DNA of 64,000 nt from a plasmid. The position numbers are program-made. Numbering within the stretch: the first letter of the stretch is position 1; each line of letters begins with the position of its first letter. Of this stretch, positions 36,001 through 42,000 are shown in pieces. The stretch is taken from NCBI RefSeq assembly GCF_988242995.1, contig NZ_OZ547044.1; one strand, 5' to 3'.

Positions 36001-39000
36001 CATGGCCGGAGTGGGCATGCTCACCGCCAGCTGGCTGCTTTGTCGCGCACAGCATGCACCGGAACGGCTGGGATACGGGGTGCTGTGGGCCCTCATGGTG
36101 TTGCTGATGAATATGCATGACGTGAGTGAATCAGTGGCCGGGCTGGCGATTGCGCTGCTGACGCTGATGGTGTGCTCATCTGCCGGAGAACGTGTGAAAC
36201 GCTTCTGGCCGCGGCAGTTCTTCGTGATGTTCTATGCCGTGCACCTGGCGGTACTCGGTATTGTCGTCTCGATGTAAAAAAAAACCGGACACAGGTCCGG
36301 GGGCGGGCACATTGCCCGTAAACGTGACAAAGGGGACATCATCGTTGTGTCCACTGCATTGCGAGGTGAAACGATGATACCGTTAGCGTATCGTATACCT
36401 CAGACCTGTAGCTTTTATTGATATGGCCCCTTATGAGTGAAGAAAAACGCCCTGTACTGAGCCTGAAACGAAAACCGGCGGAGAACAGTACGACCTCCGC
36501 AGAGGCGACCCCTGCTCCTGGTGTGGTGCGCCGAAAGAAGGTCGTGGTGGTCTCGTCCCCGCCGGCCTGGAAGGCAAAAAAAGAGAAACTTGAGAAGGTT
36601 AAACAAGCGGCCGAAGCCGCCGCGCGCAACGCTGCGCCGGTGCCGGTTAAAGCGGTAAAGACGCCACCTCCGGTGCATTATCTTCGCCTGCTGCCGCCGG
36701 AACAGGCCATCATGACCCTGAAGGCATTCTGGCCACAGCTGTTCGACGGAAACTCACCCCGTCTGCTGGCAACGGGTATGCGCGAACAGCTGTTCGCCGA
36801 CATTGTGAACCGCGACCTGCCGCTGTCGCATAAACAGGTCATTAAGTGCCTGAAGAGTCTGACCCGGTCTGCGGGCTATCTGTCCCGGATGAAGGTGGGG
36901 GCCTCCCGCTATGATCTGCAGGGGAATGCCGTCGCGACCGTCACTGCAGAGGAAGCGCAGTACGCCAGTGAGCGCATGATGAAGGAGCTGCTGCGGGCTG
37001 AACGAAAGATGAGTCAGACCCTTTAATTATATTTACCCATTCCTGATAATTATACCTGGGAATCCTCAGCTAATAGATGTAACGAAAATTAGCTGAGGGT
37101 ATGCCTGAAATAGCAACAGGTATTCATTTTATATTTGCCGCATTACAGGCTGCGGCATCATAACTGTCCGTGCAGACAGATTCTGGATGACGATGACTGA
37201 AAAAATTATTGCTCTCGTAGATTATGAAAATATTGGTACACTTGAAAGTGTCCGTCTGTCCCGTTATGAACGCCTTATTTTATTTACCGGGCCTCAGCAG
37301 GAGTTTATACGTTTTCCAGCTGTAACGTATGCAGGTGATATATCGGTAAGCGTATTCCAGGTTGCGAATGTGTCAAAAAATAATGTGGACTTCCATCTGG
37401 TGTTTGAGCTGGGAAGACTTAGCGCGACTGCACCGGAAGAGATGATATTTCATATTATCTCGAATGATAAAGGCTATGATGGCGTCATTGCCGAGCTATG
37501 CAGGGCGGGGAGACGATGTTGCCGTATATCATCGCCTTGCTCTGCAGAGAAACCGAAGGCGGCACCTATGGTAATCAGTAACGATGAAGTGCTGCACCTG
37601 ACCGATAAAGTCCAGTCATTAAGTAAAAAATCTGCAGGGAACCGCCCGGCGAATACTTCATCCCTGATGAATTATATTAAATCCCTGTCCGGTAATACAA
37701 AAGGCATGGCGCTTTATGGTCGCGTTAAAGAGGAATTAATCAGGCGTGGTGTGATTGCGGTGTATGAGAAAACAGTGGTCTGGCGATAATGAAATTAAGA
37801 CGGCTGTGAATGTTATTTTTATCTAAAAAGGAATCAATATGTTCAGATATTTCATTCTGCGCCCTGAGCAGCAGTTATTCTGTTATTTATACGGCTGCGC
37901 GCTGGCACTGGTTCAGATGGTTTTATTTTCTCCTGTATCCCGGGCAAGCGGATTTTATCTGGTTGCGTTATCTGTCGCGCTGTTCTGGGCAGGCCTTGCC
38001 CTGTACACCCGGCACATCGACCGGATGAGAAAGCCAGAGGTCTCACCGCTGGTCAGTATTCGCGACGGTATTCAGGTGGTGGCCGAGGTGCCGCGCCATG
38101 AAAAGGCCCGGCTGGAATGGGAAATCCTCCGGGATGATGAGATGTTTCGCCAGCAAAGGTGTGAGCTTACAGGCCTGACCGGACGGGTTATCAGCCGGGG
38201 GCTGTTGTATACGCCGGCGGTGATGCTGGTCGGTATCGGTATTCTCGCCTGGGGTTCCCCACAGGATGCCATCCGGCTGATTAATGCTCTTCGTAATATG
38301 CCTGCTGCGGAACTGGTGCATCAGATTGGTTTTGTCCTGTGCCACTTCCTGCAGATTAGCGTCATATCAGTTCTGATTGCTGATGTTGTAGCCGGGAGAG
38401 GACTGCCGAATGTATTTCGCCGCGCGTTGCTCGACAGGCTGCCGGCAGAGTTCTGCCTTATCAGAAGAGGGACAGAAAGATGAGGAAGACGACAGGAAAA
38501 CGCATCGGGAAAGAAAGGAACATCAGGGAATAAAATACATGGCAAAGATATTAATGATGGCGGGCAGTACCGTTGTTGTGCTGAGTTTGCTGGGATTTCT
38601 GGTGCTGCTTCTGAAAGGACGCGCAGTAACGAAGACTTCCCCGGTTCTGAGGTCACTGAAAGCCCTGGGTATTCGCCCCTCAGAGGCTGAGCAACGGTTG
38701 TGTCGCCAGCGGGTCTGGGTGGGTAATGACACACTGATGACGCCACGGGAACAACATTTTTTCCGGGCATTGCTGAGGCATACCAGCCGAACACGCTGGC
38801 TGTTGTGTCCTCAGGTCCGGGTGGCAGATATTGCCACACTCTCTCCCCATATCCGGCCACGATCCCGGACCTGGTGGCAACTCTTCCGGATGGCATCACA
38901 GTGGCACTGCGATGTGGTCATCGTTGACATCCATACCTTCGCTATCATCGGCGCAGTTGAACTGGATGATGCCTCACACCAGAAAAAACACCGTATCCGG

Positions 39001-42000
39001 CGCGATATTCTGCTGGAAGAGGTTCTGAGGCAGGCCGGCATTCCACTACTACGCGATCGGGATTCGGAGAGTCTGGTAAGAAAGGTCGGAGAGTTTCTGA
39101 AATACCGCGGAGCCGATGCAGCCGAAAAATCCATAACCGGTATGAATTCAACGACAGAGCATACTGAACGCAAGGAGAATGAAAAATGATTATCGCCGCC
39201 GAAGTGAAACGTGATGAACAGGGGTACTGGACACATCCTGCGCTGGTACGAAGTGGCTGTGAAACTTCCGCAGAATTAAGTTACTGGCTCAGAACCCATA
39301 AACTCCAGTGCTTTGTGATAACAATGCGCGATGAAGCGCCTGAAGCTTTCGCTGCCGGATTTACGGATGAAGCCCCGAATGCCCGTGGCTGGATACCGGA
39401 GCCACCGGATGATGATGGCTGGTTTCTGGGATCTGTCCACGATACCGGCGACGGACCCGTCTGCTACTGGTTTCGTCATACCACAAAATCCTGACGCCTC
39501 CGCATCGCGTCGTTGTCCAACCTCGGGAACGGGGAAAAGCCAGTTTCCCCGCTCCCGGCGTTTCTTAAACACCCGTTAAGGAAATACTGTGAAAAAAATG
39601 AACCGTACGCTCCGCAGATGTTGTCTGTCCGGGCTTATCAGCCTGTCTTTGTTTGCACCAGTTCCGGCCGTGTATGCCGCCAGCATCGAGACGGGGTATT
39701 CGCCGGAAGGAACGGCTCTGCAGCTGGTCCTGAAGACTATTAATTCTGCACAGCAGGAAATCCGGCTGATGGGCTATTCCTTCACCTCACCCGAAGTCGC
39801 CGGCGCGCTTGTCAGGGCAAAACAGCGTGGTCTCGATGTGAAAGTGGTTCTGGACTGGAAAGCCAATACAGGCAGGCAAAACAAGGCGAGTCTGGCGGCC
39901 ATGAATCTTCTGGTCAATGCCGGTATCCCGGTTCGCACAGTGTCGCAGTACAAAATCATGCACGATAAAGTCATTATTGCTGACGGCCGTAATGTTGAAG
40001 TGGGGTCTTTTAACTACACTCGAGCCGCTGATCGGTTCAATTCAGAGAACGTGCTAGTCGTGTGGGATGAACCAGTCGTTGCTCAACGCTATCTCCAGCA
40101 CTGGCAAACTCGGTGGGAGATGGGAAAAGACTGGAGTTCCTCGTATTAACCTCCTCGCTCAATAGCCTGCTCATTGCGCCAACAAGGGCAGGTTATATAA
40201 CAAAAAATAACGTAACTCTCGCTGCATCCAGCGACGTGTAGTATCTTTGTTCAAGTATTCAGTTATATGCTTGAGGAGGCAGAGATGTCACAGGTCGTTA
40301 ACGGAGTTACTTCCTCATCTAAACGTCCCTATAGGAAGGGCAACCCTGTTTCTGCGGCAGAACGTCAGCAGAAAGCTGTTGCCCGAAAAAAAGCGACGCA
40401 CAAAGAGGTGAGAGTATTTGTGCGGGACAAGCTTAAAAACCAGCTTCAAATCATGTGTGAGAATGAAGGAATTACTCAGGCAGCAATGATTGAGAGGCTG
40501 ATTGAAAGGGAATCTGCGAAACTAGGAATCGACGTAACGACGTCACATTCTTGATCATGCCTGCTATGAGTGCTAGATTACTGAACGTTTAGAATTCTTG
40601 GCTGGCCACACCATAAGGTGGCAGGGAGCTGGTTTTGTGGATGTTTACCCGGAACCAGAAAGTAAAAACCCCGATAATCTTCTTCAATCTTGGCGGAAGG
40701 AAAAGATTAACGGGGCCCTCATAAACTGCATAGAAGCTGTTGCTCTATGCAGGGAGTATATGTACATGCTCAGAAAACTTCAAGCTCAGTTTCTGTGTCA
40801 TTCGCTCCTTCTGTGCAACATAAGCGCAGGAAGCGGTGACTGATCATAACCAACAAAGCTCATGCAAGTATGTTCAGGTAAACAATCCTGAACCTGTTTT
40901 CACGGTTCCCCAGGACTACACTCCCTGGCCTTTCTCGCTGAAACTTATGGTAAAAGCCAATGGTTTCACTGAAAGCTTCAGTTTCGATATCGCATCAGCG
41001 ATGTCGCGTAGGGACGGAATACGAAAACGTAAACCCCCATTTTTGCGCCGCAGAGCGATGAATGCGTTGCTCATGGCGATGTGTTTTTATTACGATCCCC
41101 TGTCAAATAAAGTTCTGCGCTCACTCAGGGAGATTGCCCTGGAGTGCGGACTTGCAACTAAATCTCTTTCTGGCGAAGTGTCCATTACACGAGCAATCAG
41201 GGCACTGGAATCGCTGGAAAAAGATTTTGAATTTGTTGCCTGCTCATCGGATTGCTATTCAACTGCTGAGATTTTTTTCACCCCTAAGCTGTTCGAATTT
41301 CTTGGCGTATTTCCACTCTCTCTGAGCGAAGCCAGACTGAAGTGTCTGGCCGCCAAAAACAGCGGCAGGGAGAGTGCAGATGAGTAATGCGCACAATCCG
41401 CAACACTGGAGTCAGCTGGATATGGATGAACAGATCCGTTTCTGGCAGGGGGTAGAGGACGGCCATGTGGCATCTTTTCTGGTTTCCCCGGAGAAGAAAT
41501 CTACCCGTCGCCGGCGCGGCGAGCACTCCACAAAACCCAAATGTGAAAACCCGACCTGGTTTCGACCGGAGCATTACAAAAAACTGGGTGGCCAGCTGGG
41601 GCACGCCTATAACCGTCTTGTTCAAAAAGATCGCACCACTGGTGAGGTGCGACTGCGTATGCACGTATCGCTTCATCCGCTGTACGTCAGGGAACGTCGT
41701 CGGGCTGGCCGCCGGTATGGCTTCCGGCCGGAAAAGCAACGTCTGCTGGATGCTATCTGGCCAGTGCTGATCAGCTTCTGTGATGCCGGCAAGCTGACGG
41801 TCGGTATGTGTATTTCTCGTCTGGCAAAAGAACTCAGCCAGAAAGACAGTCATGGAAAAGTTATTCCGGAAACAGAGGTAACAGTCTCACGTCTGTCCCG
41901 GTTGATTGACGAACAGGTTCGTTTTGGTGTCCTGGCTGTATCTGAAGAAAATAGCTGGGACAGGGAATCCCGTACCTGGCTTCCTAAATACGTCTATATC

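Follow-up and report, generated by a model that had tools for sequence, protein, structure and literature searches.

The finO–repA interval of an IncFII(K) plasmid: a possible mosaic slot for separately acting nuclease-family genes

The 64,000-nucleotide stretch of plasmid NZ_OZ547044.1 analysed here, called the window, comes from an F-like conjugative plasmid of the IncFII(K) type, and between its finO gene and the nuc/copB/repA region sits a block of four open reading frames (ORFs) on the + strand. ORF1 (37187-37789) encodes a soluble PIN-like protein of 200 amino acids (aa), ORF2 (37839-38483) a four-helix predicted inner-membrane protein of 214 aa, ORF3 (38539-39189) a 216-aa DUF2726 nuclease-fold protein with an N-terminal membrane anchor, and ORF4 (39186-39494) a soluble, acidic protein of 102 aa (16 D/E, 9 K/R). 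They are followed by nuc (39598-40149, + strand, with an alternative GTG start at 39589), the gene of a secreted, single-HKD endonuclease of the PLD family. A sequence-only reading of the window had proposed the four as one module of co-directional, tightly packed genes. The packing is there, with gaps of 49, 55, -4 and about 100 nt from ORF1 through ORF2, ORF3 and ORF4 to nuc, and the four genes are real, conserved and correctly described, but they do not form a coherent four-gene system.

Full-length homologues exist for all the ORFs, at 28-80% identity, and purifying selection acts on every ORF, the ratio of nonsynonymous to synonymous divergence (dN/dS) being 0.08-0.33 where dS is unsaturated, so that they must be regarded as real genes and not as chance reading frames. 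An identical block is found in NZ_OW970375.1, where PGAP labels its genes, in order, as PIN domain protein, hypothetical, DUF2726, hypothetical and PLD family. As had been anticipated, a described system could not be matched to ORF1-4 in PADLOC, in NCBIfam or in the literature: a scan of PADLOC-DB 2.0 gave nothing at E<=0.1, the NCBIfam, PADLOC and PHROG scans together returned solely PHROGs of unknown function for ORF3 and ORF4, and PDB sequence searches gave no match for ORF1, ORF2, ORF3 or ORF4. Moreover, a literature search on DUF2726, yihA, pKpQIL and finO-repA2 nucleases retrieved no functional study of these genes. The possibility that the block consists of well-characterised F-backbone genes was thus half borne out, since backbone genes they are, without a characterised function. 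ORF1, ORF3 and Nuc are uncharacterised members of known families, ORF2 and ORF4 belong to unnamed families, and the block as a whole is part of a known variable region in a very well sequenced plasmid group.

ORF1 matches Pfam PIN7 (PF18475) with E=2.3e-20 over residues 10-104 (HMM positions 1-99 of 103); PIN7 and PIN_11 are the only families that Pfam returns for it, and its homologues carry the precomputed PF18475 assignment. In the protein, the PIN7 domain is joined through a variable linker to a C-terminal domain of ~50 aa that is conserved; dN/dS is 0.11. Among 14 homologues of 30-66% identity, the residues D12, E14, N15, N65-H70 (NNVDFH), S92 and D94-Y97 are invariant, the acidic active-site residues D12, E14, D68 and D94 among them. 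Of the NYN/PIN-like character first ascribed to ORF1, the PIN fold stands, whereas the NYN domain (PF01936) is not matched by Pfam. ORF1 does share the motifs D-x-E-N, KNNVD and S-x-D-x-G-Y with NYN/PIN-like nucleases (LabA-like NYN; NYN+OST-HTH), and some of its homologues are labelled NYN domain-containing by PGAP; in an hhalign comparison with a plasmid NYN+OST-HTH protein the catalytic motifs align, at a non-significant probability of 3.4%. These motifs suggest a likeness to NYN proteins. The gene was found in 3186 plasmid records, 656 of them from Escherichia. Chromosomal PIN7 homologues also exist in Permianibacter and a related genome (loci L013-L016, gene at 5001-5741 or 5001-5813), with a linker rich in Lys and Ala; three of the four loci show them in a conserved Rce1-like/PIN7/DUF885 neighbourhood unrelated to plasmids, and in L016, a short contig, PIN7 is flanked by DUF885 only. 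DUF2726 was not found near these chromosomal relatives.

ORF2 shows four hydrophobic segments by hydropathy (residues 13-31, 37-55, 121-139 and 163-181), and its AlphaFold2 (AF2) model (pLDDT 81, pTM 0.65) has corresponding long helices, as expected for the polytopic membrane protein that had been proposed. Between helices 2 and 3 the model places an insert of a beta-hairpin plus a helix (residues about 64-100), conserved and basic, which is probably cytoplasmic. Invariant residues are W50, A54, D61, R64, K89, A90, W94, P126 and P141. Pfam, NCBIfam, PADLOC and PHROG all gave no match, and a Foldseek search against the PDB returned no structural neighbour (best E 1.8). An exhaustive HMMER search among 1.84 billion representatives retrieved a family of 54 clusters, which comprise near relatives and fragments only, without a tie to any known family; the clusters examined all come from the finO-rep interval of F-like plasmids. 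ORF2 is present in 1693 plasmid records, 43 of them from Escherichia. In divergent F-like plasmids, the window not being one of them, ORF2-like genes are translationally coupled to the gene of a secreted Cys-containing protein of ~104-119 aa with a signal peptide and the motif RCSDGE..YSPGY...LRCD..GYPEWV (L007 4642-4995, L017 4690-5004, L022 5752-6111), for which the precomputed tables hold no Pfam family.

ORF3 matches Pfam DUF2726 (PF10881) with E=7.6e-22 over residues 65-178 and carries a hydrophobic N-terminal segment at residues 7-25, in keeping with the membrane-anchored DUF2726-like protein of the sequence-only reading. Additional weak matches are to MTES_1575 and DUF559. A longer reading frame from an ATG at 38410 exists, and PGAP and all homologues take the start at 38539. 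The anchor is kept in 8 of 8 homologues (47-77% identity); in ORF3 it is followed by a K/R-rich stretch, and by the positive-inside rule the nuclease domain is predicted to face the cytoplasm. D97, D125, E141, D143, D144 and H147 are invariant in the same set, so that the catalytic residues sought in the two nuclease folds, acidic ones in ORF1 and acidic and His ones in ORF3, are invariant in the homologues of ORF1 (14) and of ORF3 (8) alike. ORF3 occurs in at least 5000 plasmid records, at least 2642 of them from Escherichia, and sequence comparison identifies it as a homologue of yihA, a long-annotated and uncharacterised backbone gene of F/R100. The yihA of R100 and of E. coli IncFII-IncFIA plasmids is ~57% identical to ORF3 over residues 28-193, with the same anchor, the same invariant D/E/D/H residues and the same place just upstream of repA2/copB; on the other hand, the Klebsiella ORF3 has a C-terminal tail of ~20 aa and then the overlapping ORF4, whereas neither ORF2 nor ORF4 accompanies the E. 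coli versions. In one paper yihA was mistaken for the chromosomal GTPase YihA (PMC4794485). DUF2726 itself has been placed in the Vsr/DUF559-like PD-(D/E)xK fold (PMC3424549) and reported as an effector domain of the Abi type (PMC3710099). ORF3 shares with the Vsr/DUF559 endonucleases this fold group, the weak DUF559/MTES_1575 matches and the acidic/His motif, and differs from them in being membrane-anchored and lacking a partner cytosine methyltransferase, with nothing to suggest a repair role.

The start of ORF4 overlaps the stop of ORF3 in an ATGA junction, as originally pointed out, and the sequence A-ATGA-T is conserved whatever gene lies upstream, be it ORF2, DUF2726 or a TrbF-like gene. 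ORF4 carries the motifs GYWTHP and GWFLGSVHDT..GP.CYWFR and has a dN/dS of 0.08-0.16; its AF2 model (pLDDT 70.5) gave no match in a fold search, and Pfam, NCBIfam and PADLOC gave none either. It does match phrog_1372, an uncharacterised family (E=1.7e-27), and is found in 2812 plasmid records (174 from Escherichia) and 81 phage records. In phages, the ORF4-like domain forms a protein of its own in the lambdoid phage mEp213, where its gene follows N immediately in the early-left operon, or lies within early-region proteins of 173-221 aa such as PY54 ORF48, LASTA_00062 of a Klebsiella phage and gp46 of Burkholderia phage phi1026b (phage loci L012 3995-4318, L026 3489-4016, L027 3291-3956 and L028 3492-4013). 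These proteins fall in the uncharacterised PHROGs 1372, 20322 and 8593, and the longer ones have no Pfam match. The label 'bacteriocin immunity protein' borne by some partial ORF4 matches was traced to annotation overlap beside a klebicin operon and not to homology.

Within the block, the tightest link is the one from ORF2 to ORF4. The two overlap directly, stop on start, in four divergent lineages (L007, L017-19, L020 and L021). In the lineage of the window DUF2726 comes between them, in L022 two genes do, and L004 and L023 lack ORF4. In the same divergent loci ORF4 is the better conserved of the two, with 57-81% identity versus 28-38% for ORF2. The commonest partner of ORF4 is Nuc, adjacent to it in 9 of 15 ORF4 lineages, one of them on a non-F plasmid; PLD often persists beside a mere ORF4 remnant, and ORF4 is also found without PLD. 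A scan of species-dereplicated genomes anchored on ORF4 with strict peptide patterns returned 4 loci, all F-like, a sample too small to judge the ORF4-PLD association without bias. In Citrobacter plasmids that combine Dot/Icm-type transfer with a relaxase of the NikA/NikB type (L032-L034, 4427-6648) the order is reversed: coupling protein (T4CP), PLD, ORF4 (59% identity), then a 131-aa protein anchored at its C-terminus, and DUF2913. The last of these turns up again a few kb beyond repA in L017-19, L036, L037 and L039.

Nuc is closely related to a plasmid endonuclease of solved structure, Nuc of pKM101 (PDB 1byr; E=8.9e-55 over residues 28-183), and has a single HKD motif (HDKVIIAD) and a hydrophobic signal peptide ending AVYA|AS, as proposed for the secreted PLD-family product downstream of the block. 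The window Nuc differs in its setting: it adjoins the block and is not one of the four genes. To our knowledge, the biological role of Nuc on plasmids is unsettled. In PADLOC and NCBIfam it alone gives weak PLD-domain matches (DrmC, MkoC, DpdK), its DrmC score lying far under the NCBIfam cut-off (53 vs 133 bits).

The case against a single module comes from comparing about 20 distinct arrangements of the finO-rep interval, taken from plasmid records and metagenomic contigs with the proteins mapped by tblastn. The window reads finO-PIN7-ORF2-DUF2726-ORF4-PLD-copB. Raoultella and pMB3028_1 have DUF6404 in place of PIN7, Enterobacter (76% nucleotide identity) has DsbA-PIN7-ORF2-DUF2726-PLD with ORF4 absent, and in STIN_90 finO-PIN7 is followed by a type I restriction-modification (R-M) system. 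In the nearest diverged relative, ORF4 is absent and PLD overlaps the stop of DUF2726. The E. coli IncF plasmids lack ORF2 and ORF4 and run finO, a small ORF, PIN7 (34-41% identity), followed by DUF2726/yihA or hok and finally copB. More divergent plasmids depart further: pTB182A-5 has traI-DUF2726-traX-secreted protein-ORF2 (32%)-ORF4 (80%); L017-19, finO-DsbA-x-secreted protein-ORF2-ORF4-PLD; L020, traX-PLD-finO-traT-x-ORF2-ORF4-copB; L021, DUF2726-ORF2-ORF4; L022, DUF2726-ORF2-secreted protein-TrbF-like-ORF4-ParC/ParE; and L023, traI-DUF2726-ORF2-ParC/ParE-...-PIN7-copB. Finally, pKPN3-like plasmids read finO-DUF6404-insertion sequence-klebicin B-immunity-(ORF4 3' remnant)-PLD; in these IncFIB/IncFII(K) plasmids (L025 915-3677; L040 3318-5919) a nuclease bacteriocin of the klebicin B type and its immunity gene replace ORF2-DUF2726-ORF4.

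Judged by these sequences, there is for each gene some intact conjugative plasmid lineage that does without it. Record counts in Escherichia differ from gene to gene by up to about 60-fold, and synonymous divergence is uneven as well: between the window and L007, dS is 0.90 for ORF4, 2.4 for ORF2 and 2.0 for ORF3, and between the window and L002 it is 0.04 for ORF3, 0.19 for ORF2, 0.20 for ORF4 and 0.34 for PLD. Such unequal values between neighbours in the same plasmid pair point to recombination gene by gene. Co-occurrence across divergent lineages and outside one backbone, which would mark a multi-gene system, was not found. With subsets and orders that vary, and distributions and dS that differ for every gene, the proposal of the four genes as one obligate module is not supported.

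The explanation we favour, to which we give an even chance, is that the interval is a mosaic accessory slot holding separately acting genes that target nucleic acids, with no single machine among them; its mosaic, independent-cargo part is held with high confidence and its functional part with low to moderate confidence. F-like plasmids would keep a recombination-prone slot between traI-traX-finO and copB/repA2-tap-repA, whose cargo in this Klebsiella lineage would be five independently assorting genes. ORF2 and ORF4 would represent an older, translationally coupled pair, with the DUF2726 gene inserted between them. Three nucleases are predicted in three compartments, ORF1 in the soluble cytoplasm, ORF3 at the cytoplasmic face of the inner membrane and Nuc in the periplasm, and each may aid the plasmid separately, most plausibly by degrading entering or competing DNA or RNA; candidate targets are rival plasmids, phage, and transforming or retro-transferred DNA. 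Resident DNA might be spared by the placement at membrane and periplasm rather than by a dedicated immunity protein. In other plasmids the slot holds klebicin with its immunity gene, type I R-M, hok/gef and ParE pairs, which fits a role in conflict or maintenance and suggests, from this comparison, that genes for conflict between replicons and for maintenance accumulate there.

Several points weigh against this explanation. The order PIN7-ORF2-DUF2726-ORF4-PLD is largely conserved where the genes are present, and the whole array occurs in ~40% of the matching plasmids: a megablast search with 37000-40200 matched 2552 plasmid records (2401 from Klebsiella, 2347 conjugative, pKpQIL, NZ_CP008830.1, among them), and in 1009 of the 2552 at least 80% of the query was covered. 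The conserved order could reflect a system that tolerates partial loss. Each ORF2-bearing lineage examined has DUF2726 and/or ORF4 near by. The sampled loci all belong to related F-like backbones, whose shared ancestry confounds co-occurrence and independence alike. Lastly, the conflict role is inferred from fold, localisation and neighbours, and the topology from hydropathy and the positive-inside rule only.

The conserved arrangement could also be read as a three-gene sub-module of DUF2726, ORF2 and ORF4 with PIN7 and Nuc as independent neighbours, in which ORF2 might, say, hold or gate the nuclease at the membrane, with ORF4 as the regulator of that nuclease. We consider this unlikely, while noting that ORF2 and ORF3 are both predicted inner-membrane proteins, that ORF4 is translationally coupled to ORF2 or to DUF2726, that klebicin swaps out exactly these three genes en bloc, and that among 11 ORF2-bearing lineages DUF2726 is present in 9, ORF4 in 9, and none lacks both. 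Against it, Escherichia records number at least 2642 for DUF2726/yihA versus 43 for ORF2 and 174 for ORF4, L017-19 and L020 have ORF2-ORF4 without DUF2726, L004 and L023 have ORF2 and DUF2726 without ORF4, the phage relatives of ORF4 come with neither partner, and the gene order is variable.

The position of the block at or inside the tra operon's end raises the question of auxiliary, trb-like conjugation genes, which would act in DNA processing or envelope remodelling during mating and not in conflict. DUF2726 lies between traI and traX in some plasmids, PLD between traX and finO in L020, and PLD-ORF4 immediately behind the coupling-protein gene in a Dot/Icm-type plasmid; neighbours include DsbA/ScsC-like, TraT and TrbF-like proteins and the secreted Cys-containing protein coupled to ORF2, and expression is on par with that of traI and traX. 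A likeness to the distal tra/trb genes and the exclusion genes traS and traT can be seen in the operon neighbourhood, in the small membrane or periplasmic products and in the patchy presence, but similarity in sequence or fold to the block was not detected, and homology to known Tra or Trb proteins was not found. Each gene is, moreover, absent from many transfer-proficient F-like plasmids, with relatives of ORF4 in phages and of PIN7 on chromosomes, which makes a conjugation role doubtful.

Of a similarly low probability is a layered nuclease barrier peculiar to F-like plasmids, made of DUF2726 as a membrane-tethered DNase with ORF2 and ORF4, possibly joined by PIN7 and Nuc. If true, such a barrier would be co-expressed with the transfer genes and would destroy nucleic acid crossing the envelope, whether from rival plasmids, retro-transferred, phage or transforming DNA; exclusion or defence would then depend on where the nuclease is located and not on recognition of sequence or modification, and ORF4 would be a regulator family common to plasmids and phages.

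A single cohesive defence or exclusion system of four or five genes, with the incomplete lineages in decay, is still less probable. The genes are co-directional and tightly spaced, internal terminators were not found, nuclease effectors are combined with membrane components, the order is kept wherever the genes occur, and about 1000 plasmid records have the complete array; DUF2726 and PLD are, furthermore, effector folds of known conflict systems (PMC3710099; DrmC-like PLD matches). The same effector folds as those of Nuc and ORF3 are indeed found in DISARM DrmC, in Mokosh MkoC and in AbiJ-NTD3-DUF2726 fusions, but the block has no helicase, methylase, ATPase or sensor partner. ORF1-4 have no PADLOC match, and every member is dispensable in some intact conjugative lineage, with differing distributions and dS.

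The overlap of the small, acidic ORF4 with the stop of a nuclease gene might point to an inhibitor or immunity protein for the neighbouring nuclease, DUF2726 or pre-secretory Nuc, all the more as PLD is its immediate neighbour in 9 of 15 lineages, one of them on an unrelated plasmid backbone. This is very improbable. DUF2726 occurs without ORF4 in L004, L006, L009, L011 and L023, DUF2726 and PLD persist together without it in L004, and PLD has a mere remnant of it in many plasmids; conversely, L035 and L038 have ORF4 without either nuclease, and tblastn found none of the panel nucleases beside ORF4 in the phage loci, an annotated exonuclease lying ~0.6 kb downstream in PY54.

Least probable of all are anti-defence or establishment genes acting early in a new host, both of them roles floated in the sequence-only reading: relatives of ORF4 do lie in early phage operons, for instance directly after N in mEp213, a position at which lambda carries ral, and ORF4 is small and acidic like many anti-restriction proteins, but nucleases are atypical anti-defence folds, and the block sits ~35 kb from oriT, past finO at the opposite end of the tra operon, adjoining repA and outside the leading region, on the side of the plasmid that, by the established polarity of F transfer, enters the recipient late, so that an early role is unlikely.

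If the genes are ordinary separate cargo, what emerges is chiefly a junction, finO-repA, at which conflict genes are exchanged, a result useful for annotation and unsurprising. If the nucleases limit the entry of competing DNA, they would help to explain plasmid dominance and exclusion independent of incompatibility, and ORF4 would also connect the accessory repertoires of plasmids and phages. The block is a part of the backbone in pKpQIL-type and related IncFII(K) plasmids, which are the chief carriers of the KPC carbapenemase in Klebsiella, and ~2500 of 72,556 catalogued plasmids have at least part of it. Its interest rests mainly on this clinical ubiquity, on the orphan pair ORF2/ORF4 and on the spread of ORF4 between plasmids and phages.

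As for expression, the spacer between finO and ORF1 (37027-37186, + strand) is AT-rich (GC 0.41) and strongly structured, with an RNA folding energy of -46 kcal/mol (z = -3.3 versus shuffles). A 13-bp hairpin comes right after finO (arms about 37062-37074 and 37088-37100), followed by a second, GC hairpin; the hairpin has no U-tract and is therefore not a canonical terminator, and the spacer may be a transcript boundary or an element of stability or processing. In E. coli F-like plasmids a small ORF, of the ANR family or a hypothetical one of 66-70 aa, occupies this position. The consensus scan found no + strand promoter in the spacer or the block and no convincing terminator inside the block, its hits being at or below shuffle expectation. 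The IncFII(K)-IncFIB plasmid pBIC1a carries the block, annotated hyp/hyp/yihA/hyp/nucC, and its RNA-seq table gives values of 11 for ORF1, 14 for ORF2, 13 for ORF3, 35 for ORF4 and 13 for nuc, next to 10 for traI, 14 for traX, 72 for finO and 643 for repB (PMC6286996). Expression of the block is therefore low and resembles that of distal tra genes; weak expression, mainly by read-through from tra/finO transcripts, is what we infer. In the same table ORF4 stands at about 2.5 times its neighbours (35 against 11-14), which may reflect a promoter inside ORF3 or a more stable ORF4 message (PMC6286996).

The surrounding gene order is that of an F-like transfer region and replicon: traJ...traD, traI, traX, finO, the block, copB, the CopA RNA, repA and then IS26. 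In the transfer region, traJ lies at 2739-3458, and after it come traE, traK, traT and traD, then traI (30214-35472), traX (35552-36277) and, upstream of ORF1, finO (36418-37026; NCBIfam FinO, E=3e-79). Downstream of the PLD nuclease gene lie copB/repA2 (40267-40554) and, on the minus strand, the CopA antisense RNA (40660-40748), the only Rfam match of the scan, which gave no RNA family within the block. At E<=1e-5, NCBIfam gives no match for two sizeable + strand ORFs, one at 15-791 (258 aa), upstream of the traM/traJ region, and one at 27027-27773 (248 aa), between traT and traD. The replication initiator region consists of two overlapping ORFs, 40836-41387 (183 aa) and 41374-42381 (335 aa), both annotated RepA by PGAP in the identical plasmid, the 335-aa one exceeding the usual IncFII RepA length of about 285-297 aa. 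Five IS26 transposase genes are present in the window (240 aa each, with 238-240 of the 240 residues identical), at 42410-43132, 47827-48549 (minus strand), 50701-51423, 54121-54843 and 57134-57856 (minus strand). The first of them starts 28 nt past the repA stop, so that an IS26-bounded resistance region abuts the replicon.

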